Part shown: positions 5,826 to 25,930 of the stretch, one piece after another | How positions within the stretch are numbered: position 1 is the stretch's first letter | Layout of the letters: every line of letters starts with the position of its first letter | Assembly: GCA_964203565.1 (NCBI GenBank) | Contig: CAXNMP010000004.1 | Coordinates: 50,413 to 114,412 of the forward strand | DNA: 64,000 nucleotides | Direction: 5' to 3' | Source of the DNA: Limnohabitans sp. | Lineage (GTDB): Bacteria; Pseudomonadota; Gammaproteobacteria; Burkholderiales; Burkholderiaceae_C | The notes under the pieces: model-generated | Seen by the model: the letters and a program-made list of their open reading frames with translations, nothing else | What the model was told of the DNA's origin: nothing | Database searches by the model: none | Program-made: the position numbers and the translations under genes

Positions 5826-6087
5826 AAACTCAACTCTACCAGCAATTAATGGCGATCAAAGGATAACTACCAAAAACCTGTGAATTTTTGCGATTACTTC
5901 CTTACTTGTTTAGGAGTTGAACAGTGAAAACTCAACAGCCGAAAGAAGCTCACAGGCATCGGCTGTAGAGAGTTTTATTTTGGTCAATGAATTAACACTT
6001 TCAAAATTAAAAGCAGTAATTTAAGATAAGTCTCGACAAGTGCTAATGATTTTTGATGGGTCAATTAAGTTAAGTATCTGCAAGGGT

Positions 6088-6339
6088 CGTCAACCCTCCG
6101 CCTTCATCTGTTCGAGTCCCGATGGTGTCGTCGAAGTTTTGGGGTCAAAATTCGGGGGTCAAAACCTGAAAATCTAGGTTTTCACCTTGCCAGTTGCAAT
6201 ATGCAACTCTTGGCCAATTACACGAAATATTACACGGTGGCTATTTTTACATGTAAGTCATTGATTTATATAGACTTTTGACGAGCCTGGATTTCTGTTA
6301 AAGCACAGGTTCGCAATTCAAATCCGTGAAGCGCCACCA
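6088..6339 (+). repeat. Degenerate/chimeric att-like copy: left arm, IHF site, CTGTTAA loop and a diverged tRNA-like 3' half ending CCACCA
   Basis: 6216-6301 matches 12136-12221 (ACACGAAATATTACACGGTG..TAAGTCATTGATTTATATAG..GACGAGCCTGG.TTTCTGTTAA); 6295-6339 is 45 nt to CCA, the same register as the tRNA-Asn halves. Confidence 0.8.
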
Positions 6340-10063: not shown

Positions 10064-10933
10064 TCAATAACCTGTGTTGGGTAGAGGGGCAAGCGTTGCT
10101 TGGGTACCAGACGGAATCTGACCACGTATCTCACCGCTTGTATTGGCAGCTGTGTGAACGTTGAAATAAAGACCGTTAGTAGTGAAGGCAGCAGCTTGAG
10201 CCTCAGTCAGCACTGTGCCAGCAGGAACGGCCCATTTTCCACCGCCTTGGTCTGTCAACGTAACGATTACTGAACCATTTGCACCGCTTGCACCTTGGTG
10301 AATGTGCGCAGCGGTGGCCGTTAGGTTAGTTAACTGAATGGACCCGATTAATGCACGTGTGGAAGTAACTATGGTGGCTATTCCCGTTCCTGACCCGACG
10401 GATGTAATAGGAGGGACTTCATTTGCACCAAGCAAAACAGATGAGTAAGTCACTGTTGGAATGGCAACAGACGGAATCTGACCACGTATCTCACCGCTTG
10501 TGTTGGCAGCTGTGTGAACGTTGAAATAAAGACCGTTAGTAGTGAAGGCAGCAGCTTGGGCCTCAGTCAGCACTGTGCCAGCAGGAACGGCCCATTTTCC
10601 ACCGCCTTGGTCTGTCAACGTAACGATTACTGAGCCATTTGCACCGCTTGCACCTTGGTGAATGTGCGCAGCGGTAGCCGTTAGGTTAGTTAACTGAATG
10701 GAACCGGTTAACGCACGAGTGGAGGTAAAGAGAGTTGCTGTTGCCGTACCAGATCCGATGGTTGCAACGGGGGAGACTTCGTTTACACCAGACAAAACCG
10801 ATGTGTAAGTCACAGATGGTTCACTGGAGCCACCACCCCCCCCCCCGCAAGCGGAAATGAACGTAATGACAATGCATAACAAAAAGAGATTTAGGCAATG
10901 AGTTTGAAAGGAAAGTGTTTTGAAGCTTGGCAT
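10064..10933 (-). CDS. Lipoprotein with two tandem CHRD domains
   Basis: Lipobox FISAC-GGGGGG; twice L.G.NEV.P...G.G...AAHIHQG..G.NG...LYFNVHTAANTSGEIRGQI. Confidence 0.9.
   Translation of the reverse strand: MPSFKTLSFQTHCLNLFLLCIVITFISACGGGGGGSSEPSVTYTSVLSGVNEVSPVATIGSGTATATLFTSTRALTGSIQLTNLTATAAHIHQGASGANGSVIVTLTDQGGGKWAVPAGTVLTEAQAAAFTTNGLYFNVHTAANTSGEIRGQIPSVAIPTVTYSSVLLGANEVPPITSVGSGTGIATIVTSTRALIGSIQLTNLTATAAHIHQGASGANGSVIVTLTDQGGGKWAVPAGTVLTEAQAAAFTTNGLYFNVHTAANTSGEIRGQIPSGTQATLAPLPNTGY
10108..10700. repeat. Intragenic direct duplication, period 360 bp
   Basis: 10108-10340 is nearly identical to 10468-10700. Confidence 0.9.
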
Positions 10934-11075
10934 AAAAAAGGTGTTTGAATTAATTTAACAATTTTACACTTGATTAATTAAGCCGTCATTAACCCCAATT
11001 TTGCAATGTCTTGATTTCGGAAGAATTTACACAAAATCTAGAGCACCTTCAAAAAACCAATTAGGACTGTCTGAT

Positions 11076-11210
11076 GAGTCGAACCTCTGCCCTCCTCTGC
11101 TAGAGCACCAGCGAGGGAGTCGAACAAGCGGGATTTCAAAGTTCAGTGTCCCTTCATGGAGTCGAACTTTGAGCTTTTTCGGTTCGAGTCCCGGTTATGT
11201 CGTCGAATGT
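11076..11210 (+). repeat. Phased 41-42 bp units (GAGTCGAAC-N14/15-GTTCGAGTCC-like); arm-only copy
   Basis: GAGTCGAAC at 11076, 11117 and 11159; degenerate TCGTCGAAT at 11200. Confidence 0.8.
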
Positions 11211-11239
11211 CAGAAGCATAATTTCAGGTCATTCGACAC

Positions 11240-11268
11240 TTGACAAAACGTATCAAAGATGGTACATT
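11240..11268 (+). promoter_or_regulatory. Sigma70 promoter of the TA operon
   Basis: TTGACA-17 nt-TACATT, 6 nt upstream of the ATG at 11275. Confidence 0.75.
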
Positions 11269-11274
11269 TTGGAT

Positions 11275-11616
11275 ATGAAACCGATATTGAACGCAAGTTT
11301 CTTCAGATCAGAAAGTGGCAATGAGCCTGTACGCGAATGGCTTAAAGCTTTGTCTGCTACAGAGCGAAGAATCATGGGTGAAGATATCAAAACAGTTCAA
11401 TTTGGTTGGCCACTGGGCATGCCTTTGGTTAGGCATCTAGAAGGTGGCATTTGGGAGATCAGGATCAAACTTGAAAACCGAATTGCTCGAATACTCTTTT
11501 GCCTCGAGGGCTCCACCATGGTGATTCTTCATGGTTTTATCAAGAAGCAACAAGCCACGCCCAAACAAGATTTGGATCTGGCCAAAGAACGTCTCAAGAT
11601 CTTGAAAAGGAAATGA
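11275..11616 (+). CDS. Type II TA toxin, RelE/ParE superfamily (Gp49/DUF891-like)
   Basis: FFRSESGNEPVREWL..IKTVQFGWPLGMPLVRHL..GIWEIR..ARILF..LHGFIKK.Q.TP..DL.LA. Confidence 0.9.
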   Translation: MKPILNASFFRSESGNEPVREWLKALSATERRIMGEDIKTVQFGWPLGMPLVRHLEGGIWEIRIKLENRIARILFCLEGSTMVILHGFIKKQQATPKQDLDLAKERLKILKRK

Positions 11617-11617
11617 C

Positions 11618-11905
11618 ATGTCAAAGAAAAACATTGGATCGAGTTTCGATGATTTTTTGCAAGAGGAATCCCTGCTTGAGTCCAGCACTGCTGTTGCCTT
11701 AAAAAGAGTTATTGCTTGGCAGATAGACCAAGAGATGAAAGCTCAGAAATTGACCAAAACTGAGCTCGCCAAACGCATGCACACAAGCCGTGCTGCCTTG
11801 AATAGATTGCTTGATGAAAACGATGCAAGCTTAACCCTAACCACTCTCGCCAGTGCCGCTGCGGCGTTAGGCAAGAAGGTGAACTTGCAACTAGCAGCGG
11901 CTTAA
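11618..11905 (+). CDS. XRE-family HTH antitoxin
   Basis: MSKKNIGSSFDDFLQEE..TKTELAKRMHTSRAALNRLLD; directly downstream of the toxin. Confidence 0.88.
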   Translation: MSKKNIGSSFDDFLQEESLLESSTAVALKRVIAWQIDQEMKAQKLTKTELAKRMHTSRAALNRLLDENDASLTLTTLASAAAALGKKVNLQLAAA

Positions 11906-11946
11906 CCAAAGATCAGTATTGCGCCAGTTAATTTTTTCATTTTGAA

Positions 11947-12415
11947 GTTCGAGCACCAGCGAGGGAGTCGAACAAAAGTGATTTCAAAGTTTAGTGTCCC
12001 GTCATGGAGTAGAACTTTTAGGAAATTTAGAACAAGCCCCAAGCCTAGCGTCTAACTTCTCGCGCGTAAAATGACTTCGCTGAGTGCAAATTTGCTTGTT
12101 TTGGCTGGAAAGTTACATAATGTAACTTTTGGGGTTATTACACGAAATATTACACGGTGACTATTTTTTCGCATAAGTCATTGATTTATATAGGTTTTTG
12201 ACGAGCCTGGCTTTCTGTTAATCCGTAGGTCCCTGGTTCGAGCCCAGGTCGAGGAGCCACCTAAAAAAGCATCGTCAAAAGCGATGTTTTTTCCTTTTAT
12301 ACGCAACAACTTGTCGCGTTGAGGGCCTCTGGGTGACTTTTTGCCCTCAAATTTCATCGAGTTATTGCACGTATATTACACGGTGGATGGTTCGAGTCAA
12401 GAGGCAGAATCAGTC
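11947..12415 (+). repeat. Full attP-like site, copy 1
   Basis: About 370 bp (12048-12415) is a close direct repeat of 21368-21722; contains the palindrome at 12109-12129, TATTACACG pairs at 12136-12156 and 12363-12382, and an IHF consensus at 12174-12186. Confidence 0.88.
12215..12259 (+). repeat. 3' half of tRNA-Asn(GTT) (att core; not a complete tRNA)
   Basis: CTGTTAA-TCCGT-AGGTC-CCTGG-TTCGAGC-CCAGG-TCGAGGA-G-CCA; no D-arm or 5' acceptor strand upstream; terminator-like hairpin follows. Confidence 0.9.
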
Positions 12416-12540
12416 GGCCCATAAAATATTCAAATGCCAAGAGACGATTCAACAAAAATCACCAGTGACGGCACTATGTGGAACGAACTTCGTAATTGGC
12501 CTCAATTTGGCCACGATAAGACTCAATAAGGTGCGACAAC

Positions 12541-12798
12541 GAACCGGCACCTTGGGTACCCAACTGGGATCGTCCATTATTTAGGCTACGAGGTTTTCTG
12601 ACACCAGAGGAAGGTACTCGTACAACATTGCACTGCGCAATTCATGCACCCCAAAAAGAGTCCGGCTTGTACTATGCAGACCCTAAACCGATGCAACCTG
12701 TAGCGCTGGGGCAAAATTCTGCATTAGCCGCTGAGCTTTGGAGGCTCAGTGAAGTTTGGATTAAACACAGCCATAACATTTCAAATCATCTTGGCTAA
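12541..12798 (+). pseudogene. C-terminal remnant of an SDR (retinol dehydrogenase/WWOX-like) gene
   Basis: Startless frame ..RPLFRLRGFLTPEEGTRTTLHCA..ESGLYYAD..LAAELWRLSE; upstream in-frame stops. Confidence 0.55.
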
Positions 12799-12966
12799 AA
12801 CTACTTAAGTGAGTAGGCTTAAGCTCGGGTCGGGAGTTGGGTATTGGCGACGGGCCTGCTGGGGGCTATGGACTTTGCCTGTATTGCATGAAACGCCAAA
12901 TCAAAGCTGTTGTGAAATTGACTTGCAGATGTCAAAGAATGAAGTTTTTGAAAAAGGAAACACCAA

Positions 12967-13944
12967 ATGAATATGAGCACAATTTGTCTCTGCAAACGCT
13001 GGTGCATGGCTGCGCTCTTGTGCGTAGCAGCCCAAGTTGTGGCGGCCCAGCCTTTTAGCTTTGTGGCCTTGGGTGACTTGCCTTACGGTCAGGCGGGCCA
13101 AGGATACGCGCCCTACAAATCGCTGATCCGTTCTATCAACCAAGAACATCCCAATTTTTCGATTCACATCGGTGACTTCAAATCAGGCTCTACGCTGTGT
13201 TCGGATGAAGAGTCCCAAGTGCAACTCGGGCATTTTGGCTTGTTTGACAGCGCCCTGGTCTTCACGCCAGGCGACAACGAATGGACCGACTGCCACCGCG
13301 CCAACAATGGCGGTCATGATCCCCTGGAGCGCCTGCAGGCTTTGCGTGCCACTTTTTACAAGCCGGGTTTGTCGATGGGTAAGCAGCCGCTGCCTCTGCT
13401 GAACCAGTCAGTGGCGATACCGGCATTTGCCAAGTTTGTAGAAAACCAGCGCTGGTATCACCAAGGCGTGGTGTTTGCCACGCTGCACATTGTGGGCAGT
13501 AACAACAACTTTGAAGTGCGTGACCCGCGTGCAGCAGCCGAATTTTTTGAGCGCGACAAGGCCAACATCGCTTGGATACGTGAAGCCTTTGCAAACGCCA
13601 CAAAGACACAGGCCAAAGCCATCGTGCTGACCATGCACGCTGACGTGTTTGAAGTCAAGAGCCTGTGGGAAGACTTTCCTGCGCACTCGGGTTTCCGTGA
13701 CAGCATTGGCGAGACTTTGCTGCCCTTGGCGGCGCAATCCAAAATCCCGGTGCTGTTGATCCACGGCGACAGCCATGTTTTCCGCTTTGACCAGCCCTTT
13801 ACGCTGAACAAAAAGCCAATCACCCAACTCACCAGGCTGGAAGTGCCCGGTGCCGGTGACGTGCGCGCAGTGCATGTGACGGTGGACTCCCGCCAACGCA
13901 ACCCCTTCGCGGTGCGCTTGTTGGAGCCAGCTGCCGCGCCCTGA
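12967..13944 (+). CDS. Secreted calcineurin-like metallophosphoesterase
   Basis: LGDLPY, IHIGDFKSG, TPGDNEWTDCH, LIHGDSH motifs; signal peptide. Confidence 0.82.
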   Translation: MNMSTICLCKRWCMAALLCVAAQVVAAQPFSFVALGDLPYGQAGQGYAPYKSLIRSINQEHPNFSIHIGDFKSGSTLCSDEESQVQLGHFGLFDSALVFTPGDNEWTDCHRANNGGHDPLERLQALRATFYKPGLSMGKQPLPLLNQSVAIPAFAKFVENQRWYHQGVVFATLHIVGSNNNFEVRDPRAAAEFFERDKANIAWIREAFANATKTQAKAIVLTMHADVFEVKSLWEDFPAHSGFRDSIGETLLPLAAQSKIPVLLIHGDSHVFRFDQPFTLNKKPITQLTRLEVPGAGDVRAVHVTVDSRQRNPFAVRLLEPAAAP

Positions 13945-14123
13945 TTCGCCAAGGCTTGTAGCCGATTTGTGCGACCATCGCGTCAATACACATGATGGAC
14001 TCGCCATTTACGATGCATCTGGTAGACAACCAGGTCGCATTGATGGAGATCTCGTTTACAACTCATCAAGCAGCCAAGTAGGTCGCATAGCGCCTAATCT
14101 CAGATGAAGGTTAACTTTGCAAT

Positions 14124-14525
14124 TTACGCAGACAGGTCAATCCTTGGTGATCCTGTATGACTGGCCAAAGACTCAGGTTTCTTTGAACTTGGCTGAGTAT
14201 TACTAACCGATGCATGTGACTGGAGTTGCCCGCCACGATTTTGCAGTTCCAAGCCAACGTGTTGCGCAGCATATACATTGCTGCTTTGCAAAGCAGCACC
14301 AAGCTTGTTCAGATAAGGATCTGCAGACACAGTGGGATCGAAATTGATCAAAGCAGTGAATGCCAGTCTTGCAGCATCCAAATCGCCCGCTTTTAAGGTT
14401 TGAAGCAAAGCCTGTAATTTTTGGCGACGACGTTGTTGCTTGTCACCCTGAGGCGAACTATTGCCATCCCAACGCTTTCTATTAGCGTCAATACGAAGCG
14501 CAAATGAAGTATCCATGACACCCAC
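14124..14525 (-). CDS. Hypothetical protein
   Basis: 133-aa helical ORF ending G.PRIDLSA. Confidence 0.6.
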   Translation of the reverse strand: MGVMDTSFALRIDANRKRWDGNSSPQGDKQQRRRQKLQALLQTLKAGDLDAARLAFTALINFDPTVSADPYLNKLGAALQSSNVYAAQHVGLELQNRGGQLQSHASVSNTQPSSKKPESLASHTGSPRIDLSA

Positions 14526-14792
14526 TCCTTCCGATCAATTTGGTCTGTTCCGCTACACCTCTGCTTTTATTAATTATTTAAGTTTCAAAATGAGTGATTG
14601 GTTGTCTCGTTTGACCTGATTTGAAAGGTTCAATAAAAATTGAATGTCAAGAGATCAACCAATCAATAGTCATCAAGCATAAAGAATGCCAAGTTGGGCG
14701 TGCGGAGATTGACAAGGTTAAAAATACGGTCAAGGTCATTAAGTGTTCACATAACACCTATAAAACATTGTTATCAACGTAGGAGGCTGAAC

Positions 14793-15128
14793 ATGGACAA
14801 TTCGGTTTCATCTATTGAACTGCTTGCTCGTCTCTTTAACCAATCATTACGCAAGCGGGGTTTTACCAGAGCCATACATAGGGCGATGAACCCTAGTGAA
14901 TGCACCGGAATCATGTATCAAGATTTCGGGGTTGTCGGTCTGGTCGTTGCAGGTGAATTGGCGCTTGAATTTTATGAATCAAGTCAAAGCCACGGCACTG
15001 GAGAAGAGTTCACACTTCCTGCAAATATCTATTTCCAAGCTACTGCCGGTGATGATGGGGCACAACTGCTAATTGCAAAGAAGCGAGCACACTTGGCAAG
15101 TACAACAGAATCGCTTGAAGAGATCTGA
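14793..15128 (+). CDS. Hypothetical protein, possible cupin-like fold
   Basis: AGGAGG RBS before the ATG at 14793; LVVAGELAL..GEEFTLPAN beta pattern. Confidence 0.55.
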   Translation: MDNSVSSIELLARLFNQSLRKRGFTRAIHRAMNPSECTGIMYQDFGVVGLVVAGELALEFYESSQSHGTGEEFTLPANIYFQATAGDDGAQLLIAKKRAHLASTTESLEEI

Positions 15129-15155
15129 TCAAACATTAACCAAAGGAGCCTGACC

Positions 15156-15443
15156 ATGGAAAACCAAGCCACTGAAAAATTCTCTGAATTAGTTGACGAG
15201 TACCAAGAAGAATTTGAAACACCAGCAGAATTGCATCGAATGGCAGCCTATCACTTGATGCAGGCCTCAAAGCAGCACGAGTTAGCCGCAGAGGCTTTTG
15301 AGAACGATGATCAAGTCACCTGCGATCTTCATTCCCTTCGTGCATACAAGCATGAACTCAATGGAAGGCAGTATTCTGAAATGGCCATGATGGATGCTGA
15401 CGATATTGATGACATAGAAGACGTTGAAGCTACACAGACATAG
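15156..15443 (+). CDS. Acidic His-containing helical hypothetical protein
   Basis: AAGGAG RBS; ELHRMAAYHL..KQHELAAEA. Confidence 0.6.
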   Translation: MENQATEKFSELVDEYQEEFETPAELHRMAAYHLMQASKQHELAAEAFENDDQVTCDLHSLRAYKHELNGRQYSEMAMMDADDIDDIEDVEATQT

Positions 15444-15466
15444 GCATCAAAAGATCTCTAAATTCA

Positions 15467-15760
15467 ATGAAGCGAGCCAGCAAATACGATAATCTTTTGA
15501 ATCCAATCAACCAAAAGAAAATTGACGATCTGTGCCAATCAATCAGTGAAAACTGTGACAGCCCCTTAGGATGGGAGCAATTAACCAAGCTAAGTGGCTT
15601 GACTCACAAAGAATTGATTGCTCTTTTTCAACTGTACAAACAAACAACGCCTATGGCGTTCATCAAACACGCTAGGCTTCTTAGAAAAATTGACTCACCG
15701 GTATTTCCTCAAAATCAACTTTTTCCAAAATCTATAAAAAATACAGATACGACAGGATGA
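15467..15760 (+). CDS. Short AraC-like HTH protein (single HTH)
   Basis: EQLTKLSGLTHKELIALFQ..TTPMAFIKHARL resembles AraC HTH1. Confidence 0.6.
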   Translation: MKRASKYDNLLNPINQKKIDDLCQSISENCDSPLGWEQLTKLSGLTHKELIALFQLYKQTTPMAFIKHARLLRKIDSPVFPQNQLFPKSIKNTDTTG

Positions 15761-15775
15761 ACATGATCACAACAA

Positions 15776-16864
15776 ATGAATGTGTTGTTGAGAGTTTTTT
15801 CTAAAACAAGACACACCCCTGCCATAAACAAATCTTTTAATGTGAAGTGTTTTTTAAAAAATACTCCCATGTCAGTTGAGTCAGTCTGTTCAGAATTCCA
15901 CCTAATCAATGATGGTGGTATCAATCGCAAAGTAGCCTATTCACGATTAGGTGAACTAAATGCAAAACATATTTTTTTATGCTTGCCGGGATTGTTAGAG
16001 ACGCGTGAGAGCTTTTATCCTTTGCTTGATATGGTTGAGCAATTTGATGATTGTTGCTGGATAAGTATAGACTACTGTGGAAGAGGAAATTCGGATCCAC
16101 TATCTTCTACTGCAAACTACTCATTCTCAAAATATCTTGCTGATACAGAAGATTTGATTGAGTCATTGATTCTGCCGCAGCAAGTGGATGCAAGTCGCAA
16201 ACTCCATCTGATTGGAACAAGTATGGGCGGCATTTTGGCAATGCATCTTGTGAATCGCTTAAGCCATAAGGTCGACAGCGTGATGCTTAACGATATTGGC
16301 TTTTATCTCCACTGGTCAGCTTTGATGACTCTTTACCAGAATATCAATCAATCAGACAACCAAATCGATAAATTAACAGTAGATGTGCGTGCCTTGGAAG
16401 CAGTACAAAGCAGCTCACACTTTGATTTGCCCTATGAATTTGATTTACTTGGAATGCGGTTTCACACTCTACTTCAAAATTTCACCGGCCGGGTTGTTTT
16501 GCTGCACAACGCTGAGAGCCCGATATGTTCATTGAACATAGCGAATCAATCCAAAGCAAAATTTCCAACCTTGAAGGTTTGGACCTTAGATAAGTCAGGC
16601 CACCCAGCCAAATGGGAGGAAAGTATGGTCGTAAAACTCTCTCAATTGATGAGGCTCAAGGCAAAGTCAATAGAAAATACAGATAGTCAAGTTTCGCTAC
16701 AAATACCTGAGATTATTCAATCAACAAGCGCCTTCGGTACGAGCTTCATTGAATCATTTCTTAAAACCAGTCAAGCCTACTTTGAATCAACTATTGAAGA
16801 TCCGAGACTTTGGTTCAACAAATTGGTAAAACGGATCAAGTTTTGGAAAGGATCTTATTCTTGA
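15776..16864 (+). CDS. Alpha/beta fold hydrolase
   Basis: CLPGL, DYCGRGNS, nucleophile motif IGTSMGG, LNDIG. Confidence 0.8.
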   Translation: MNVLLRVFSKTRHTPAINKSFNVKCFLKNTPMSVESVCSEFHLINDGGINRKVAYSRLGELNAKHIFLCLPGLLETRESFYPLLDMVEQFDDCCWISIDYCGRGNSDPLSSTANYSFSKYLADTEDLIESLILPQQVDASRKLHLIGTSMGGILAMHLVNRLSHKVDSVMLNDIGFYLHWSALMTLYQNINQSDNQIDKLTVDVRALEAVQSSSHFDLPYEFDLLGMRFHTLLQNFTGRVVLLHNAESPICSLNIANQSKAKFPTLKVWTLDKSGHPAKWEESMVVKLSQLMRLKAKSIENTDSQVSLQIPEIIQSTSAFGTSFIESFLKTSQAYFESTIEDPRLWFNKLVKRIKFWKGSYS

Positions 16865-16924
16865 CACTTTATGAAATAACCAATAAATTAAAACTGATGA
16901 ACAAAGTTTTATAAAGGAAGTGAT

Positions 16925-17560
16925 ATGAGGATAGCTTCATTCGTTGGTCAAAAAGGTGGGGTTGGAAAAAGCACCCTTGCAAGGGTACTTGCAGTGGCAG
17001 CTGCCAGACAAGAATACAAGGTTCTGCTGGGCGATTTTGATCTAGAGCAACTGTCTTGCATCGAATGGAGTGCTACCCGCTTGCGAAATGGTATTGAACC
17101 AGAGATAGAAGCACGTGCTTTCAAAAGTCTAAAAAAGCTTCGAAAATCTGTGGAAGGTTTTGATTTAGTGGTGGTGGACACTCGTGGTTTGGCCGATGAG
17201 TTAACCACAGACATCAGCCAAGAAAGTGATGTAATTTTCCTTCCAACAGGCACATCAATGGATGATCTCCGTCCTACCCTTGCCTTGGCAAGAAGGCTTT
17301 CCAAGAATCGTAAAATCGGCAATAAAATTGTATTAGTACTCTCAAAAGTAGGTCGCTCTGAACGCCTACTTGAAATCGCCAAAGTGACCATTGAAGAAGC
17401 TGGCTTCGAAGTGCTGGATAGTATTTGGCCAGAGAGAGATGGCTTTCAAGCAGACTTGGACATTGGAAAAGCCGGAAGCGAAGCTCACAATCCTTATTTG
17501 CGTGAAGCAGCTGAGTCGATTGAAGCTGAACTACTTCATATTGCGATCAATTCTAAATAA
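16925..17560 (+). CDS. ParA/MinD family ATPase (short type, no ParB neighbour)
   Basis: Deviant Walker A GQKGGVGKST, DFDLEQ, VVVDT. Confidence 0.85.
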   Translation: MRIASFVGQKGGVGKSTLARVLAVAAARQEYKVLLGDFDLEQLSCIEWSATRLRNGIEPEIEARAFKSLKKLRKSVEGFDLVVVDTRGLADELTTDISQESDVIFLPTGTSMDDLRPTLALARRLSKNRKIGNKIVLVLSKVGRSERLLEIAKVTIEEAGFEVLDSIWPERDGFQADLDIGKAGSEAHNPYLREAAESIEAELLHIAINSK

Positions 17561-17592
17561 GTTGTGTATGTATCAATTCGCCAATCAACATC

Positions 17593-18231
17593 ATGGTTGA
17601 ATTGATTGACCTAAACATAACTGATGAATTGCTTCGGGCGATTGTTGGTATTTTTGTGATTGTTGATCCTATTGGTTCAGTTGGCATTTTTTTGTCTGTC
17701 ACTAGCGGCTTTACTCAAATCAAAAAAGAAAAAGCAGCTCGTTTTGCAGGCATAACAGTTGCTGCTGTTCTGGTGATAGCCGCATTGATGGGGCAAGCAA
17801 TACTAGATCTCTTTGGAATTCGGCTTGCCGCCTTTTCAGTCGCAGGAGGGATTCTTTTTTTAATCCTGGCTGTTGAAATGATCAGAGGTGAAGGGGCTTC
17901 TCAGTTTCACAAATTGAGTGAACGACCTGAACAACTGCCGGCAGCTGCAATTGTTCCATTAGGCGTCCCTTTAATGGCGGGACCAGGAGCAATAAGTACC
18001 GTTATCCTTTCAAGTCCGGGAAGTGCTAATTGGTTTGAAACCACTATTCTCATTAGCTCAATAGCCGTGCTTGGCTTGGTAACGTGGTTGTGCTTTTCAT
18101 ATGCTCAACACATAGGAAAACTGATCGGAGATATCGGAATACAACTCATCAGCAGAATCATGGGTTTGATACTTGCGGCTTTAGCTGTCGAGTACATGGT
18201 GAAAGGTATACAGATACTGTTCAACCTTTAG
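17593..18231 (+). CDS. MarC family membrane protein
   Basis: IVDPIG, FSVAGGILF, IVPLGVPLMAGPGAISTVI, RIMGLILAALAVE. Confidence 0.9.
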   Translation: MVELIDLNITDELLRAIVGIFVIVDPIGSVGIFLSVTSGFTQIKKEKAARFAGITVAAVLVIAALMGQAILDLFGIRLAAFSVAGGILFLILAVEMIRGEGASQFHKLSERPEQLPAAAIVPLGVPLMAGPGAISTVILSSPGSANWFETTILISSIAVLGLVTWLCFSYAQHIGKLIGDIGIQLISRIMGLILAALAVEYMVKGIQILFNL

Positions 18232-18257
18232 ATTTGAGACATGCGGTCTCAAATAGT

Positions 18258-18506
18258 TCAAGAAATATTTTTAGCGTGCGTAGCCGTATCAAAGGCTTTG
18301 GCTTTGCCGATATAGAAACGATCAATGCGCCAATCTCGCAGCAACTCTATTGCCAAGTCAAAATCATCAGAATTGAGTTTGTACAGTTCAGTCACTGGAA
18401 ACTCCTGGTCAGATTCCAAAGCAAGTATGACCTTAGCAAACGTGAGACCTTCAATTGAATTTGGAGATTTTTCGATGAATTTTTTTACTTTTTTAATGGC
18501 TCGCAC
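18258..18506 (-). CDS. Hypothetical protein
   Basis: 82-aa ORF with GAGAAA RBS; LALES..F...LY.L...DFDLAIELL.DWRIDRFY. Confidence 0.6.
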   Translation of the reverse strand: MRAIKKVKKFIEKSPNSIEGLTFAKVILALESDQEFPVTELYKLNSDDFDLAIELLRDWRIDRFYIGKAKAFDTATHAKNIS

Positions 18507-18844
18507 AGCATTTCTCTAAGAATAAAGATGTGAGAATGTTACACGCTTCTTTACCAAGAAATTATGACATATTGATGTCATATTCTACCGTGATGTGAAC
18601 TTAGTTGGTGAGATGCATACAAATTCAAATTTTGACATCGAATTGAAGTTACAAGTGCCCAATGCATCAATACAGGTTTGAAAAAGGCCTGCACTCGCAG
18701 GAAGGGGTGCTTAGTGACTATTTTTTAGAAAACCATCATGAATTGCATTAAATAGTATGCAATATGAAGTTTTATTAGTCCTAAATAAACACACCGTTTC
18801 GGGGTTCCGAGTTCGAGAACCCTCATGTCAGCTGTCCGGGTATG

Positions 18845-18985
18845 GAGTCGAACTTTTGAGAAATTTAGTTCCAGCCCCAAGCCTGAGCGTCTAAGTTGTC
18901 CAATGCACGGTGACAGCACTGATTGCAAAATCTACGAAAGTGCTGGAAGGATTGCAATTTACAATTTTTGTCTATTTACATGAAA
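18845..18985 (+). repeat. Diverged left-arm copy of the att-like element
   Basis: GGAGTCGAACTTTTGAGAAATTTAG..AGCCCCAAGCCT.AGCGTCTAA..TGCAAA..GCTGGAA aligns with 12006-12156. Confidence 0.75.
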
Positions 18986-19123
18986 TTTCTTCACAGTAGT
19001 CTTAGGTCTATGGGTTAAAGTAAAAGAACTGATTCAAATCGTTGACCAAGAAAAAAATCTGATTTATTCGAATACAGTCTTGGGATCAGTTGCTTGTCTT
19101 GTTATAAATTGACAGTTGTCTGA

Positions 19124-19591
19124 ATGACTACAAAGGTGGATAAGATGTCTGCGTCTTTTATAGATTCCATACTAGCCCTAGACCAACAACTCATTCAATT
19201 GGTTTACCGGAGTCGCTCTCTGATAGAAGGAGCTGAATACGAAAAATTAATGTCTACATGTCTTCGTAACAACCCTAGCCGCGGTATCACGGGAGTTCTG
19301 ATCTCGCATTCAGGCTGGTTTCTTCAAGTGCTTGAAGGCACAGCAGCAAATGTCAGCTCACTTTTTAAAGTCATCGAAAATGACCCGCGGCATTCTGATT
19401 TTCTGCTTTTAAGATTCAACGCTGTTGCAGTTCGGGATTTCAGCGACTGGTCGATGGCCTCGATAACAGTTGATGAGCAGCGATTCATACACATGGCGAA
19501 TCAAGCTCTGCTAGCCGAAGGTGTGGCGATGTCTGCAGTCCGGGACTTCTTGTGCTATGGCAAATGGACAGATGGAGCAGAAAGCTATTGA
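19124..19591 (+). CDS. BLUF domain blue-light sensor
   Basis: LVYRS, RNN...GITGVL, FLQVLEG, I..DPRH (conserved Tyr/Asn/Gln). Confidence 0.9.
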   Translation: MTTKVDKMSASFIDSILALDQQLIQLVYRSRSLIEGAEYEKLMSTCLRNNPSRGITGVLISHSGWFLQVLEGTAANVSSLFKVIENDPRHSDFLLLRFNAVAVRDFSDWSMASITVDEQRFIHMANQALLAEGVAMSAVRDFLCYGKWTDGAESY

Positions 19592-19705
19592 TGCCAACAC
19601 CAGTCGTTCCTGACAACGCATAGGTCAATAGCTTATCCAATTCAACTCACCCTAATCAAATTCCAACACCATTCAACATGTGCGATCTTGTGATGACACC
19701 GAATC

Positions 19706-19825
19706 AAGTTCGAGCCCCAAGCCAACCGTGTAACTTTTCAAGTGCAAAATGACGCGGCCAAGTGCAAAATCTACGAAAGTACTGAAAAAATTGTAATTTA
19801 CAATTTTCGGTCATATACACGGCAG
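19706..19825 (+). repeat. Diverged left-arm copy of the att-like element
   Basis: GTTCGAGCCCCAAGCC..GTGTAACTT..AAAATGAC..AGTGCAAAATCTACGAAAGT..palindrome 19787-19807..TACACG. Confidence 0.75.
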
Positions 19826-19950
19826 TTCATTAGCAAAAAATTATGCACGAAAATTAACAGCCCTGAAACAAAAAACTAGCAGAATTCATTAAATTTTATT
19901 TACTGGTCAAGAAGATTTCGATAGGCAGTTTTTAAAATTATGGAGTTTAA

Positions 19951-20322
19951 ATGTTTTCAATTTTAAAGTTTTTCTATCTAGTTTTTCAAAAAGGTCGCAG
20001 CCTTTTAGATCCCAATCTCAATCCCTTGAGGCACGCTCCAGCGCACATCAGGTATTTCGCCACCATACTTCTAGCTTGTTTTTGGTGTTTGGCTTTTGGG
20101 CTTTACTTTAAAGAGTTTCTATCTATCGGCTTCAACATGCTTGGGCACATAGCTGTAATCAGCATGGCATTCATAACTTGGTTTACATTTAAACAGTTCA
20201 ATAGGATTTATAGCCCCAGAGCCGGAACAGAGGACTGGCTTCGCATGCCTGATCGAGGAAGTCGTTGTGACGAGATGACTGAGGAACAAAGGCTTTCAAG
20301 GGCTAATGAGTTGAATAAGTAA
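19951..20322 (+). CDS. Hypothetical membrane protein
   Basis: LDPNLNPLRH motif followed by two hydrophobic helices. Confidence 0.65.
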   Translation: MFSILKFFYLVFQKGRSLLDPNLNPLRHAPAHIRYFATILLACFWCLAFGLYFKEFLSIGFNMLGHIAVISMAFITWFTFKQFNRIYSPRAGTEDWLRMPDRGSRCDEMTEEQRLSRANELNK

Positions 20323-20568
20323 CTCACTTGTTGCATTGTGCCGATTAGCATAGAAAAAACATGGCCAAGGAAACTACTAATGTCCCGAAAAGTGATGACG
20401 ACGTAATCGATGCTGAAGTAAAGGAAATCTCAAAAAATAATCAACTTTCGTTATATACGTCGTCTAAAGATTCTCCATCAAAATATGAGTGCTTTCACAA
20501 AGATACAGTGCCAACCTTTTTATAATGAACTACAGTTCAAGTTAATCTAAAACACTTAGGAGTGATTT

Positions 20569-21261
20569 ATGACTGAACAATCTCAAACCATTGAATATGG
20601 AACTGTCTTATCCAGTCCCGAAGAGCGCAACCGTGTTCTAAGAAACACTTACTGGCTTCTAGCCCTGAGCATGTTGCCCACCGTTTTGGGAGCTTGGCTG
20701 GGCGTTGAGACTGGTCTTAGCAAGGTACTCAGTGGATGGGTGGGTCTGGCTGTGATCTTGGCTGGGGGGTTTGGATTCATCTATGCGATTGAAAAGACCA
20801 AGAACTCAGCTGCTGGTGTACCTGTTCTCTTGGGCTTTACTTTCTTCATGGGTCTGATGATCAGTAGCTTGATTGCTGCTGTATTGGGCTTTAAAAATGG
20901 CTCTTCCCTTGTTATGACTGCGTTTGGTGGTACGGCAGGCGTCTTTTTTGTCATGGCCAGTTTGGCCTCTGTTATCAAAAGAGATCTCTCTGGGATGGGT
21001 AAGTGGCTGTTTGTTGGCGCAATAGTCATGATGGTTGGTGGCATCATCAACGTGTTTGTTGGCTCCAGCGTTGGCATGATGGTGATCTCAATGATGGGTA
21101 TTGCTATCTTCAGTGCTTACATGCTTTATGACATCAAACAAATCATTGATGGTGGCGAAACCAATTACATAAGTGCAACTCTGGCTCTGTACCTCGACAT
21201 CATCAATGTATTCCAAAGCCTTCTGGCCTTGCTGGGACTCATGGGCGGCGAGAAGGACTAA
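20569..21261 (+). CDS. yccA: Bax inhibitor-1/YccA family membrane protein
   Basis: RVLRNTYWLLALS, 7 TM segments, II.GGETNYISATLALYLD..NVF. Confidence 0.9.
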   Translation: MTEQSQTIEYGTVLSSPEERNRVLRNTYWLLALSMLPTVLGAWLGVETGLSKVLSGWVGLAVILAGGFGFIYAIEKTKNSAAGVPVLLGFTFFMGLMISSLIAAVLGFKNGSSLVMTAFGGTAGVFFVMASLASVIKRDLSGMGKWLFVGAIVMMVGGIINVFVGSSVGMMVISMMGIAIFSAYMLYDIKQIIDGGETNYISATLALYLDIINVFQSLLALLGLMGGEKD

Positions 21262-21326
21262 TTACAGTAAGTCACCAATAGAGATGTCAATTTGATTTGT
21301 TGAAATCTGATTCCACCGCCTTTCAA

Positions 21327-21722
21327 GGAGTCGAACTTTCGCCCGTACTGGTTCGAGCCCTAAGCCTAGCGTCTAACTTTCACGCGTAAAATGACCGCGC
21401 TGAACGCAAATTTGCGTGTTTTGGCTGGAAAGTTACATAATGTAACTTTTGGGTTAATACACGAAATATTACACGTTTAATAAAAACGCCTATAAGTCAT
21501 TGATTTATAAGGGTTTTTGACGAGCCTGTTTTCCTGTTAATCCGTAGGTCCCTGGTTCGAGCCCAGGTCGCGGAGCCACCTAAAAAAGCATCGTCAAATG
21601 CGATGCTTTTTCCTTTTATACGCAACTACTTGTCGCGTTGAGGGCCTCTGGGTGACTTTTTGCCCTCAAATTTCATCGAGTTATTGCACGTATATTACAC
21701 GGTGGATGGCATCAGTCAAGAG
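21327..21722 (+). repeat. Full attP-like site, copy 2
   Basis: Direct repeat of copy 1; palindrome at 21429-21449, IHF consensus at 21493-21505. Confidence 0.88.
21534..21578 (+). repeat. 3' half of tRNA-Asn(GTT) (att core)
   Basis: Identical to 12215-12259 except one acceptor-stem base (TCGCGGAG vs TCGAGGAG). Confidence 0.9.
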
Positions 21723-21766
21723 GTTTAGCTTTTTGTGTTGAGAAAGTAAGGCGGTGTAGACAAGCT

Positions 21767-22201
21767 ATGCAAAAAAAGTGGGTGTTATCGGGGTTGCTTT
21801 TGCTGTGTTTTTCAGCCTCAGCAGAATGGAAATTTTTGTTTACGACCCAAATTGAACCTTGGCGACCAGGATCAAAGGGCATGAGGGTAGACCACTACAT
21901 TGGCGAATATTCAATCAATGCAGAAAGCCCTTTCTTAGAAATTCAAGTTTTACAAAACTTTACAACATTGGAATCGGGGACTGGCCCAAAAAGAAATTGG
22001 TCAGTTGTAAAGCAAGAAAAATTAAATTGTGCGCAAGCAAATTTCAGTACTTTGTCCTTTGTTGTTTTTTCGGATTTGAATGGCTTGGGCGAAGTTTTGG
22101 AAAGCTTTACGAAAACACAGATCAAATGGGAAAAAATCGACTCTGATGAGGACATCACCAAGATTCATAGGGTTGTCTGCGGCAACACAGCAAGTCGGTA
22201 A
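21767..22201 (+). CDS. Secreted surface-adhesin E family-like protein
   Basis: Signal peptide-AEW, ..KLNC.., W..I, C-terminal Cys. Confidence 0.55.
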   Translation: MQKKWVLSGLLLLCFSASAEWKFLFTTQIEPWRPGSKGMRVDHYIGEYSINAESPFLEIQVLQNFTTLESGTGPKRNWSVVKQEKLNCAQANFSTLSFVVFSDLNGLGEVLESFTKTQIKWEKIDSDEDITKIHRVVCGNTASR

Positions 22202-22245
22202 AAGCCACTTTTAAAGAGCGAAGTCTTTTTTGAACCGAGCCAGAA

Positions 22246-22542
22246 CTAATTACTTTTCTTTTGAATTAGATCTACAACAGGCGTCCCGTTCTGATCAAAT
22301 CCGTAAGGCATGTCTTTCTCACTGCTTCCATCGCAGGCGGCAGCCATATTTCGCTTAGCGTTGTTGCAAGCAATATTGGCTGTCGTGAAAATATCGTCTT
22401 TAGTGGGGTCCCCCTTTTTGCTGCAGTAGTGGTCATATTGCATTTTTGTTTGTTCACAAGTACCGCCCCGAGTATCTTTATTTTGGGCTAGAGCGGTCAC
22501 TAAAACTGTACTCAATAAAGTCAAAATAACTATTGATTTCAT
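22246..22542 (-). CDS. Small secreted 4-Cys protein (paralog of 25609-25890)
   Basis: Signal peptide; GTC-x10-C..AC.NAK.N...ACDG. Confidence 0.7.
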   Translation of the reverse strand: MKSIVILTLLSTVLVTALAQNKDTRGGTCEQTKMQYDHYCSKKGDPTKDDIFTTANIACNNAKRNMAAACDGSSEKDMPYGFDQNGTPVVDLIQKKSN

Positions 22543-22706
22543 TTTTTTCCTTTAAGGTGAAATGGATAAAAAGAGCAAAAACAACCTTGCCTCAAGCATA
22601 AATCGCACTATAAACACTAAAGACTGCCAAGTCACTTTTTCTTTTAGCCCATCATTTCGTCAGAATACACCTTATGTACAAGCGCCTGACGCAAAGCTTT
22701 TCATTT

Positions 22707-23690
22707 TCATTGGTCAACCTCAATAACTACATTTCCTATGGTTTGACCCGCCTCGACAGCCAGGTGCGCCTCAGCAGTTTGCTGCAATGAAAAAGTTGCC
22801 CCGATAGTGTGCTTGAGCTGTTTGTTTTCCAGCATCCTACTCAAAATGTGCACACACGGTTCGCGCTGCTGAACCGGAAGGTCGTAGACCAAGAAAAAAC
22901 TCATGCTGATGGAGTTAAATAGTAGCGGCCTGAACATCACAGGCACCTCTGCAGGAAGATTGGACCCGTAACACACCAAATGGCCGTGGGGTCGCAAAAC
23001 ACCTTGAGCAACCCATGAAATGGTGGTGGAAAAATCCATGTCAATGATGGTGTCGACGCCTTTTCCGTGTGTCAGGTCTTTAACTTGCGCCACGACATCA
23101 TCGGTTTTGTAAAAAAGGCAGTTATCCGCTCCAGCTTCCTTGGCATGTGCAGCCTTGGCTGGTGAGCCCACTGTGCCAATGACTTTGGCACCCATCCTCT
23201 TTAGCATCTGGGTCACATAATGACCAACTGCAGACGATGCACCAGTGACAAGCACGGTTTGTTTTGTCACATCCCCTGCGATCCGAACAGCTTGTAACGC
23301 TGTCAATCCTGGAATTCCCATGCAGGCACCTTCCTGAAATGAGGTGCCGTCTGGCAAATGAGCCGCCTGATCTGAAGGCAGGCAGACATATTGCGCTGAT
23401 GTCCCCATGGGTCGTTGCCATTGGGCATTCCAAACCCATACCCGTTCCCCGAGCCGAGCCGGATCCACCCCTTGACCGATGGCGTCGATGATGCCAGCAC
23501 CGTCACTGTGCGGCACGATGAAAGGGTCTTGGAGTGGCCGCGCCAAACGCGACTTGACATCAGAGGGGTTCACCCCTGAAGCGAACAATTGCACGCGAAC
23601 TTCATTCTTGGCTGGCTGTGGAGTGGGTAGATCGCCGTAAATCAGAACTTCTTTGGCGCCACCGTTGCGCTCGTACCAAACAGCTTTCAT
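22707..23690 (-). CDS. NADPH:quinone reductase (zeta-crystallin/MDR family)
   Basis: SGVNPSDVKSR, PHSDGAG, VLVTGASSAVG. Confidence 0.9.
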   Translation of the reverse strand: MKAVWYERNGGAKEVLIYGDLPTPQPAKNEVRVQLFASGVNPSDVKSRLARPLQDPFIVPHSDGAGIIDAIGQGVDPARLGERVWVWNAQWQRPMGTSAQYVCLPSDQAAHLPDGTSFQEGACMGIPGLTALQAVRIAGDVTKQTVLVTGASSAVGHYVTQMLKRMGAKVIGTVGSPAKAAHAKEAGADNCLFYKTDDVVAQVKDLTHGKGVDTIIDMDFSTTISWVAQGVLRPHGHLVCYGSNLPAEVPVMFRPLLFNSISMSFFLVYDLPVQQREPCVHILSRMLENKQLKHTIGATFSLQQTAEAHLAVEAGQTIGNVVIEVDQ

Positions 23691-23959
23691 GGGCTTTTCC
23701 TTAGGTTGAACCACCATGGCGCAAATGACTGCGCATGTGGCAATTTCAGACTATATATTTTTTGCACCCTTCGCAAAATATCCTATTTTTTTAAGATCTT
23801 GGGGCTGTCAGATTTATACATGGTAAGAATTTGCGGCGAAGCTAAGTGAATACCCTAGCGTTTAAATATTCTTTCTTGACAATTGATTAGGTATGCATCA
23901 CATTTCGCAGACCAAACACTTTTTTGTGTTCGGAAATTAACATCAAAAAGGAGACTTTT

Positions 23960-25513
23960 ATGAGTGATAAACAACGCCCCTTCGGCGTTTCCATGACCGA
24001 AAGAGAATTTGATGAGTGTTTGCATGCGGACGAGGCCGCATTTCGTTCGCCAATACCAACACAAATTGTCTCCAATGGCGAATACAACCCGATGCCGCAA
24101 ACGGAAAAGCAAAAAAAGGTTGAGTTTCTGATCAAAGAAATTGCGGACAAAGAAGCCAAGCGCCACAACACGACGCGCCGCAAATTTCTGGCATCTTCCT
24201 CTGGCATGGCTGCTGCCTTCATGGCTATGAACATGGTTCACGGCGACATCTTCGATGTCAATGCAGCTGAGGTCAAAAGCCCTGATGCAGCAGGCGACCG
24301 CAAAGCCAAATACAAGGGTCAATTCATCTTTGATGATCAAACCCACTTTATCCGTGATGATTTCAAAGAGGAAGGTCTGCTGGGTTTGACCAAATGGGCT
24401 GAAGGCGCAAATGTCAATCCCAATATTGGCAGTGTTCCCACCAATTTGTCGCGTTACAAAATGGACAACTACCTCAAGGAAATTTTTCTTGACAGTGATA
24501 CCACCATTGCTTTGCTGTCTGGTGCGCCATTTGATGACCCGAACTGGTGGTTGCTCTCCAATGATGCGATTCAAAACGCCTGCCGTGCAGTCAACAAAAT
24601 GGCTGGCAGCGTGCGCATGTTGGGTCACTCCATCATCACACCCAAATATCCCAATTGGATGGATGAAGTGGACCGTGCCATTGCCGAACTCAAGCCTGTG
24701 TCCTGGAAGTCCTACACCATTGGCGACCCCTTCGGCCCGTCCAAATACGCTTGGCGACTGGACGATGAAAAGCTCATGTATCCGTTCTACGAGAAAGCGC
24801 TTAAGTCGGGCATCAACACCATTTGTATCCACAAGGGCTTGATGCCACGTGACTATGAAAAAGCTTTTGCCGGTACTTGGGAAAACGCAACTGTCGCTGA
24901 TGTGGGTAAAGCCGCCAAAGACTGGCCCAAAATGAACTTTGTCATCTACCATGCTGCTTTGCGTCCATGGTTGGCTGACAAACCCGACATGGAAATGGCC
25001 CAGTTTGAAAAGGATGGCTATATCCAGTGGGCGACAGACTTGGCTCGTATTCCTCAAAAATACGGCGTCAATAATGTCTATGCCGAAATCGGATCAAGCT
25101 TTGCCAGTACCGCAGTGACAGACCCTCGCTTCTGTGCCGCCTTCATCGGACAACTGGTCAACCTGATGGGTCCTGAGCGCGTGGTGTGGGGTACTGATTC
25201 GGTTTGGTACGGTTCACCGCAGTGGCAGATCGAAGCCATGCGCCGCCTTGAGATTCCAGATGACATGATGAAAAAACAAGGCTGGAAAATCAAGCTGGGC
25301 GATGGCCGCGGATCTGTCAAAAACAAGATCTTCGGTGAAAACTCTGCCAAGTTGTACCGCTTGGACGCACAGAAGATCGCTGCTGATGCAAAAGCCTTCG
25401 ACCACGACATGATTGCCCAAATGAAGGCCGAGTATTTGGCCATGGGTGGCGAGCGTAGCAATGCAGCTTATGGCTATATCGCCAAGGAAGGACGAGAGGG
25501 CAGCCTTGGTTGA
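23960..25513 (+). CDS. Amidohydrolase family protein with internal twin-arginine motif
   Basis: AAGGAG RBS; DDQTHF, ICIHKG, VIYHAA, VWGTDSVWYGSPQWQIEA; TTRRKFLA at about residue 70. Confidence 0.85.
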   Translation: MSDKQRPFGVSMTEREFDECLHADEAAFRSPIPTQIVSNGEYNPMPQTEKQKKVEFLIKEIADKEAKRHNTTRRKFLASSSGMAAAFMAMNMVHGDIFDVNAAEVKSPDAAGDRKAKYKGQFIFDDQTHFIRDDFKEEGLLGLTKWAEGANVNPNIGSVPTNLSRYKMDNYLKEIFLDSDTTIALLSGAPFDDPNWWLLSNDAIQNACRAVNKMAGSVRMLGHSIITPKYPNWMDEVDRAIAELKPVSWKSYTIGDPFGPSKYAWRLDDEKLMYPFYEKALKSGINTICIHKGLMPRDYEKAFAGTWENATVADVGKAAKDWPKMNFVIYHAALRPWLADKPDMEMAQFEKDGYIQWATDLARIPQKYGVNNVYAEIGSSFASTAVTDPRFCAAFIGQLVNLMGPERVVWGTDSVWYGSPQWQIEAMRRLEIPDDMMKKQGWKIKLGDGRGSVKNKIFGENSAKLYRLDAQKIAADAKAFDHDMIAQMKAEYLAMGGERSNAAYGYIAKEGREGSLG

Positions 25514-25539
25514 TCAAGGTTTCCTTGCCTAAGTGATTA

Positions 25540-25580
25540 GCAAGCTGCATACAAAGCGTATGCAGCTTGCTTCTTTTTTT
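25540..25580 (+). terminator. Intrinsic terminator
   Basis: GCAAGCTGCATAC-aaagc-GTATGCAGCTTGC followed by TTCTTTTTTT. Confidence 0.8.
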
Positions 25581-25608
25581 GAGAACCAAACTTCTTTCAG
25601 AGATGCAT

Positions 25609-25890
25609 ATGAAAAAAATCCATAAGACATCCATAGCTTTGTTGTCATTAGCCCTGTTTTCACTGTCTGTTTCAGCCAATGAAGAGGAAAAGAAATCCCG
25701 TGTGGGAACCTGTCAGGACGCAAAAAAGCAGCAAGAATATTTTTGTGACATGAAAAATGCAGCAACAGACTCCATGGTTGCATTGGGCACTGCATGCCGT
25801 AATGCCAAGATCAATGTCAAGGAGGCGTGTGAAGGTGTTGTGCTTCCAGACCCTGTATATAAATCTTGCGCTATGGAACAAAAGTGCTGA
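25609..25890 (+). CDS. Small secreted Cys protein (paralog of 22246-22542)
   Basis: Signal peptide; GTC-x10-C..AC.NAK.N...ACEG. Confidence 0.7.
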   Translation: MKKIHKTSIALLSLALFSLSVSANEEEKKSRVGTCQDAKKQQEYFCDMKNAATDSMVALGTACRNAKINVKEACEGVVLPDPVYKSCAMEQKC

Positions 25891-25930
25891 AGCAAACCTT
25901 TGATCCATCACTCAGTATTTGCCTTTGAGC

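Follow-up and report, generated by a model that had tools for sequence, protein, structure and literature searches.

Limnohabitans is a dominant genus of freshwater bacterioplankton, and in one of its genomes short palindromic units recur every 41-42 bp in the gaps between small gene modules, which raises the question of what these units are. The window analysed here, that is, the whole stretch of 64,000 nucleotides, corresponds to C4:50413-114412 of an assembly of 2.74 Mb (26 contigs, 99.8% complete), which was the genome searched. An initial annotation of the window had read the units either as an array of same-face binding sites for a dimeric protein (a recombination directionality factor, a partition protein or a replication protein) or as secondary T-loop-type recombination sites. 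On the evidence given below, the units are best seen as accessory elements of an att-site arm, a known kind of feature in a new form.

The left half-site GAGTCGAAC occurs in eight exact copies in the window, as compared with an expectation of 0.20 ± 0.40, and none of 100 shuffles reached eight. Seven of these copies lie on the + strand, and the single copy on the - strand (47836), which is isolated inside a gene and has no partner half-site, is a chance match. Genome-wide, the exact 9-mer was found 20 times; nine copies, on the + strand, are clustered within about 37 kb (C4:41.7-78.7 kb), and those outside the cluster are isolated. A BLAST search of this genome located the unit family solely on C4. 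This confinement to one region of C4 excludes a dispersed REP/BIME-like family, which the initial annotation had named as incompatible with its reading.

In outline, CGAAC(TTT) is followed by a 14-nt variable spacer and GTTCGAG(C/T)CC; the full unit of 34 bp is GGAGTCGAAC, the 14-nt spacer opening with TTT, and GTTCGAG(C/T)CC, after which a linker of 7-8 nt brings the period to 41-42 bp. Tandem spacings in the window are 41, 42 and 41 bp, 42 and 41 bp, and 42 bp, in agreement with the spacing first reported, and a period test across the arms of relatives (see below) was also positive. The recurrences listed earlier at 11076, 11117, 11159, 11965 and 18845 are exact copies, but those at 12007 (GAGTAGAAC, one mismatch), 11200 (GTCGTCGAAT), 12048 (GCGTCTAAC) and 18887 (GCGTCTAAG) are only degenerate, the last three being left-like sites; that list had also missed 21328, 28253, a degenerate unit at about 6085-6119, and C4:41768 and C4:48509 upstream of the window. 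The imperfect inverted repeat described for each unit is real but short, only CGAAC/GTTCG and one T-A pair being consistently complementary. The elements of the window are as follows, from left to right after the exact 9-mers.

11076, 11117, 11159, 11965, 18845, 21328 and 28253, + strand: exact copies of GAGTCGAAC (seven, range 11076-28261).
6085-6119, + strand: degenerate unit, GGGTCGTCAAC ... GTTCGAGTCC, heading a type-II arm.
6217-6236 and 6295-6301, + strand: TACACG direct repeat and then the heptamer CTGTTAA of the type-II arm, the heptamer being joined to a non-Asn tRNA-like 3' half.
11075-11108, + strand: unit 1 of a three-unit array, with left GAGTCGAAC, 14-nt spacer and degenerate right GCTAGAGCAC; of the same type as the GGAGTCGAAC..CCCTCCTCT..GTTCGAGCAC units of relatives.
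11116-11152, + strand: unit 2, GGAGTCGAAC, 14-nt spacer and degenerate right half-site AGTTCAGTGTCC; kept, spacer included, in at least 9 arms from other genomes.
11158-11191, + strand: unit 3, canonical, GGAGTCGAAC, 14-nt spacer opening with TTT, GTTCGAGTCC.
11192-11210, + strand: type-II arm stub with an extra left-like site GTCGTCGAAT, truncated by the toxin-antitoxin module.
11197-11905, + strand: Gp49/HigB-like toxin and HTH antitoxin pair between the two arrays (antitoxin 11618-11905); the longest ORF of the toxin begins at 11197 and a promoter lies at 11240-11268, the true start being probably near 11270, past the promoter.
11947-12039, + strand: second array, opening with right half-site GTTCGAGCAC at 11947-11956; unit 2 occupies 11964-11999, and the proximal unit at 12006-12039, GGAGTAGAAC ... 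GAACAAGCCC, is decayed.
12040-12214, + strand: remaining type-I P arm, with left-like GCGTCTAAC-TTT at 12048, palindrome 12109-12129, TACACG direct repeat 12137-12156, IHF-like site 12174-12186 and core-proximal block.
12215-12259, + strand: displaced 45-nt tRNA-Asn 3' half, from the anticodon loop CTGTTAA (att core), with a terminator at 12264-12292.
18811-18877, + strand: right half-site (18811-18820) and unit (18844-18877; right half GTTCCAGCCC), heading a diverged arm without a tRNA-Asn core, before the BLUF gene.
19708-19717, + strand: isolated right half-site GTTCGAGCCC, at the head of a second copy of the arm, also diverged.
21327-21360, + strand: proximal unit with right part CTGGTTCGAGCCC; downstream, direct repeat 21456-21475 and tRNA-Asn half 21534-21578.
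28227-28285, + strand: rightmost copy, a partial unit 2 and a canonical unit (28252-28285), directly meeting unrelated DNA, with arm and core both absent there.

The units thus listed occupy gaps between + strand gene modules, which include the Gp49/HTH toxin-antitoxin pair, BLUF, Bax1-I, Adhesin_E and others. From several units a repeat of about 370 bp extends rightward and includes the 45-nt tRNA-Asn 3' half, beginning at the anticodon loop, and then the terminator. Four displaced tRNA-Asn 3' halves are present on C4, whereas C3 and C5 have one intact tRNA-Asn gene each, next to which are encoded a tyrosine integrase of 461-491 aa and a conserved protein of about 160 aa. With tRNA-Asn halves lying downstream of units and intact genes lying next to integrases, the region is, as judged from these sequence features, a tandem accretion of predicted tRNA-Asn islands and their remnants, mostly without an integrase; the integrase-less modules retain units. 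Because the islands accreted in tandem and were partly degraded, several arms, whole or decayed, are found in the window. Moreover, several arms in this and other genomes are joined at CTGTTAA to sequences other than tRNA-Asn, and these joins place the crossover in that heptamer. Every mapped crossover lies in this anticodon-loop CTGTTAA, about 205 bp from the units. Arms joined at CTGTTAA to something other than a tRNA-Asn half include those at 6295-6339 of the window, L016 (C4:41976 onward), L018, L023, L028, L041, L066, L069 and L083. One recurrent non-Asn variant (CTGTTAATCAGAGGTTCTSTGG...) also has three copies on C5 and is found on Comamonas plasmids. These joins look like secondary-site integrations or diverged island-borne copies of a tRNA half.

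The integrase of these islands is a heterobivalent-type tyrosine integrase of 461-491 aa, the C3 and C5 enzymes being 50% identical. The protein of about 160 aa encoded 3' of each integrase on the same strand (C5:70977-72899 and C3:22204-24193; L055, L056) is 26% identical between the two copies, matched nothing in Pfam, PHROG or PDB sequences, and is represented by only 71 cluster representatives among 1.8 billion proteins. It is the sole conserved neighbour of the integrase, detected in just 10 of the 22 genomes with arms (many of these genomes being fragmented MAGs), and is a candidate directionality or accessory factor. No recognisable AlpA/HTH_17-type excisionase (Xis) gene was found in the tRNA-Asn islands. 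After the first displaced tRNA-Asn half of C4, the integrase gene (C4:13598-14985; L017) is split into ORFs of 238 and 149 aa, compared with 461 aa on C5, and is probably a pseudogene.

Placed against these junctions, the units are part of the predicted island-side (P) arm of att junctions at tRNA-Asn. The complete arm is about 325 bp long and contains, from the outside to the core, a distal TACACG-like pair, 1-4 units (decayed in some arms), two short palindromes, a proximal TACACG pair, an IHF-like site and the core. For comparison among relatives, arms were selected by the TACACG direct repeat and core pattern only, with the units excluded from the pattern to avoid circularity. This yielded 40 distinct arms from 22 genomes of the same genus, 36 of which had enough flanking sequence and were analysed. 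Units were found upstream of the TACACG repeats and CTGTTAA core in at least 30 arms, and in about 20 arms the unit starts 130-131 bp ahead of the TACACG repeat. Within the 36 arms, the distance from CGAAC to GTTCG was 19 bp in 19 cases and 20 bp in three, and that from GTTCG to CGAAC was 22 bp in 19 cases. Preferred positions relative to the proximal repeat were -190, -148 and -106 for GTTCG and -168, -126 and -84 for CGAAC, and the proximal right half-site lay at -105 to -107 from the TACACG direct repeat in 30 of the 36 arms. The half-sites therefore alternate in orientation every 19-22 bp, about two helical turns, which places them on the same face. The helical period is thus conserved in homologous arms, contrary to the outcome that the initial annotation had taken as fatal to its own reading.

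The register is kept through DNA that is itself variable. In the segment from -95 to -35, arm subtypes are only 26-37% identical to each other; nevertheless, the distance of the half-sites to the arm-type repeats and the crossover is fixed to ±1 bp, despite the near-random identity of the DNA between. The claim that the inner spacers vary with ends and period kept was borne out, the half-sites being conserved far above the spacers: information content was 1.74 bits per column for GTTCGAGCCCC, 1.31 for CGAAC-TTT and 1.33 for the next left-like site, as compared with 0.50 for the inner spacer. In a second arm class, which has the left half-site TAGATC-CGAAC, the conserved block extends outward by roughly another 115 bp, as far as a second TACACG-like pair, so that the units sit between two pairs of presumptive arm-type sites; past the outer pair, the cargo differs at every locus. 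The arms are related by descent, and inheritance could account for part of the conservation.

A pattern for the hairpin detected the unit in 28 of 139 genomes of the genus, with almost no matches to a reversed control pattern, in none of 24 other genera of the order, and in just one other genome among 400 of the family. The arm had no match in phage collections, and a literature search found nothing on these Limnohabitans tRNA-Asn islands. On Comamonas plasmids the proximal arm and core are present at 83% identity, but no recognisable unit stands at the matching position. Since arm and core are shared there without a unit, the units may not be essential for recombination.

Several further elements of the arms were observed. 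A palindrome of 15-21 bp lies 8-28 bp before the proximal TACACG repeat at 12109-12129, 21429-21449 and 6192-6212 and in homologous arms; it exists in at least four versions (GTTACATWATGTAAC, GTTGCAAWATGCAAC, TTTGTAATTTACAAA and ACTGTAAWTTACAGT), in which paired changes preserve the dyad. A second, outer palindrome behaves likewise (ACGCAAATTTGCGT versus AACCTG..CAGGTT). To the right of the core, the P' side (12363-12399) has a TACACG-like repeat pair of its own, and 7 nt beyond this pair stands GTTCGAGTC; the copy from 21682 has GCATCAGTC instead.

The units might act as RNA, forming stem-loops in the 3' termini of island mRNAs that read toward att, which they would terminate, stabilise or mark for processing, and in most modules they do lie downstream of + strand genes, each with the potential for a short hairpin. 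We regard such a role as very unlikely, however. Only 5-6 bp are consistently paired, and mismatches prevail in the outer stem (of 27 distinct units, 17 have G.G and 17 have A.C); no covariation was found in the stem, changes in the left arm, including the T-to-C change of the second class, being uncompensated. No U tract or terminator was called within the units, the single-strand fold z-scores of the array (-1.2 to -1.9) are unremarkable, and no Rfam family matched the units even at E ≤ 10. Moreover, the array at 11076 lies upstream of a divergent gene and not downstream of any. Little pairing, together with the lack of covariation, Rfam and terminator signals, indicates conservation at the level of double-stranded sequence and points to protein contacts. 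The resemblance to tRNA suggests another explanation, namely that the units are a functionless relic, a tandemly duplicated and decayed tRNA-Asn 3' segment (T-arm to acceptor) inherited with the arm block. Indeed, the right half-site plus three bases is CTGGTTCGAGCCC, the T-arm of tRNA-Asn, an identity reported earlier for 21348-21360 and verified here; about one-third of distinct units in other genomes also carry this 13-mer, which in the present genome is confined to both tRNA-Asn genes, their four displaced halves and two units. It is plausible from this match that the right half-site descended from the T-arm of the target. In addition, the right half-site, linker and next left half-site loosely resemble the stretch from T-loop to acceptor end, copy number is variable with several copies decayed, and one arm (L065) aligns with most of the tRNA, in an alignment that fails multiple-testing correction. 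Against a relic stand the part of the unit 5' of the T-arm, which is no more similar to tRNA-Asn than shuffles are (mean score 13.4 vs 13.2), the much better conservation of half-sites than of intervening spacers, and the ±1-bp spacing to the TACACG repeat across dissimilar DNA, which is unexpected of neutral relics; we consider this explanation unlikely. A tRNA gene or pseudogene was rejected, with ARAGORN negative, Rfam negative (at gathering thresholds and at E ≤ 10) and the 5' part no better than shuffles, as was a whole pseudo-tRNA, only the T-arm 10-13-mer matching tRNA-Asn.

A role in recombination at the units themselves, either as lox/FRT-like 34-bp sites (13-8-13) for module exchange on an integron-like platform or as the secondary T-loop sites proposed initially, agrees with the unit length, the inverted ends, the arrays that frame the toxin-antitoxin module and the cassette-like appearance of small same-direction gene modules between repeats. 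The left and right flanks of the proximal unit also assort independently, with a hinge at the left half-site or spacer (in an ungapped mosaic test that is fragile to 1-nt indels and is used qualitatively). All mapped crossovers are at CTGTTAA, however, and junction positions vary: when the breakpoints of modules in relatives were mapped relative to the units, hybrids between arm subtypes were found to switch at differing positions past the right half-site, with no fixed exchange point. The array-toxin-antitoxin-array arrangement represents one junction, identical in this genome and a relative (G138), and is therefore inherited and not recurrent, which rejects recurrent cassette insertion. Differing cargo joined to one arm, seen as the variable left flank, is the expected look of the outer edge of an att site. 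Integron attC sites likewise are imperfect inverted repeats between small same-direction modules, including toxin-antitoxin pairs, but attC or CALIN sites were rejected: attC sites measure 57-141 bp with R''/L''/L'/R' boxes (RYYYAAC ... GTTRRRY), whereas the unit measures 34 bp, its GTCGAAC and GTTCGAG misfit the R/Y pattern, L boxes and compensatory changes are absent, and its distance from a tRNA-type core is fixed. No IntI was found, with no TIGR02249 match above cut-off in this 99.8% complete genome, and res-like sites of serine recombinases were rejected, a resolvase-family gene being absent from the genome. From the varying switch points, the single shared toxin-antitoxin junction and the absence of integron integrase and serine recombinase, the mosaicism is read as homologous exchange and deletion among tandem related arms, and exchange at the units appears highly improbable. 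The units might alternatively serve another step of the excised island, as a transfer origin, a sopC-style centromere or a replication origin, in which case they would stand close to the end of the island but have no part in its integration. Tandem units of about 42 bp with an inverted repeat resemble the geometry of sopC, an orphan ParA-like gene lies at 16925-17560, and integrase-less modules have kept the units. Nevertheless, C4 has no ParB, the sole ParB_N match being chromosomal (C1), no relaxase or Rep gene was found among the scanned ORFs, there are only 1-4 units, and single-bp register with the arm-type repeats is unexpected for an independent site; we hold this to be rather improbable. 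The partition-protein version of the initial proposal is thereby disfavoured, as is the replication-protein version, nothing pointing to replication. Operators of the adjacent HTH antitoxin were also rejected as a general role, since the toxin-antitoxin pair stands beside an array in only about 5 of the 36 arms.

About 36 kb from the arrays of the window, next to probable restriction-modification genes, C4:25083-25694 encodes a 203-aa tyrosine recombinase, for which no link to the units was found. It is of invertase size and has a paralogue at C3:13703-14227. Next to it, within C4:25083-33635 (L005, L017, L016), are a NucS-like gene and ORFs of 307, 406, 684 and 917 aa, which may constitute a phase-variable restriction-modification system.

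We return to the island-side arm, in which the units would be phased docking sites for a putative architectural or directionality protein of the intasome, a reading that we prefer and regard as having an even chance of being correct. The kind of site suggested initially, same-face sites for a protein, is supported by the conserved half-sites, the phase of about two turns, the ±1-bp register and the location within an att arm; the dyad is weaker than first described and does not by itself establish a dimeric protein. In the mechanism that we envisage, the TACACG repeats would be arm-type sites of the integrase, and the phased half-sites would bind an accessory protein that, by wrapping or bending, brings the approximately 200 bp separating the two repeat pairs into the recombination complex. 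The binder could be a factor with a directionality or architectural role, the integrase itself through an additional contact, or a protein of the host. Since the right half-site is a copy of the target T-arm, and the T-arm in the target itself lies 18-30 bp to the right of the crossover, one factor could touch both places. Against the docking-site reading, the units lie 205-330 bp from the crossover, farther than the accessory sites of well-studied att sites.

A bolder version, to which we attach a low probability, is target mimicry, in which the right half-sites would be deliberate copies of the T-arm and one protein would read GTTCGAGCCC both in the tRNA gene and in the arm. This sequence would then be met beside the crossover and again, in phase, in the island arm at distances of about 185, 227 and 269 bp. 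Either the integrase, through a third DNA-binding surface, or its conserved neighbour of about 160 aa could be that protein, and by bridging both locations it would bring the arm back onto the target, with consequences for site choice or directionality. To our knowledge, such a mechanism is undescribed for tRNA-integrating islands.

As docking sites in an att arm, the units can be compared with known systems. The P arm of lambda attP carries the Int arm-type sites P1 and P2, with sites for IHF, Xis and Fis between P1/P2 and the core. The Limnohabitans arm resembles it in several respects: the site is that of a tyrosine integrase, the arm is long and asymmetric, the core has repeated arm-type sites on either side, an IHF-like site is present, and extra conserved phased elements lie between arm-type sites on the arm that ends up in attR. 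The Limnohabitans arm is, however, about twice as long, is accompanied by no recognisable Xis-type gene, and has inverted half-sites two turns apart in units of 41-42 bp, in place of the adjacent direct Xis sites of lambda; a right half-site that copies the T-arm of the target tRNA is likewise unlike lambda attP. The Xer sites cer and psi have about 180 bp of accessory sequence beside the core, which is bound by PepA with ArgR or ArcA. Shared features are an accessory region of about 200 bp on one side of the crossover and the importance of its spacing to the core, together with the binding of non-recombinase proteins in cer/psi; the recombinase class (here an integrase with arm sites) and the motifs differ. 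In the F plasmid centromere sopC, SopB binds a 7-bp inverted repeat that is present in each of 12 tandem 43-bp repeats; sopC is similar in having tandem units of about four helical turns with a short inverted repeat in each; the present locus differs in its 1-4 units, in having no ParB/SopB gene nearby, and in the fixed register with att arm repeats. At the genomic scale, the asparagine tDNA hotspots of Klebsiella provide an example of the tandem accretion of islands and integrase-less cis-mobilisable elements (CIMEs) at tRNA genes (PMC4891358). In Limnohabitans, as in Klebsiella-type accretion, tandem islands and remnants are bounded by tRNA 3' fragments and most are integrase-less (PMC4891358), but the present islands cross over in the anticodon loop, retain both arms at internal junctions and have phased units in the arms.

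The Limnohabitans tRNA-Asn locus is evidently a hot spot for cargo such as defence genes, toxin-antitoxin pairs and light- or stress-related genes. Its arm architecture, comprising two TACACG pairs, phased half-sites, covarying palindromes, an IHF-like site and an anticodon-loop crossover, offers a precise, searchable signature for islands and their remnants and provides a small group of cis elements with which integration and excision could be reconstituted in an assay. If the half-sites bind a new accessory factor, or the integrase through T-arm mimicry, they would represent a new route of directionality or target recognition in tyrosine-integrase systems; if they do not bind, they would still be a useful marker of island boundaries.

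Some further observations concern the surroundings of the units. The G+C content of contig C4 is 48.5%, as compared with 53-56% in the three large contigs, and several small contigs are also at 48-50%. A duplication of 1973 bp with 93.7% identity relates C4:46937-48907 to window positions 19761-21726 and spans a 123-aa ORF, the Bax1-I gene (apparently truncated in the upstream copy), a unit and the arm. Finally, the CHRD-domain gene at 10064-10933 contains an internal direct repeat of 300 bp (10103-10762), 92% identical and 360 bp apart, which corresponds to its two CHRD domains.
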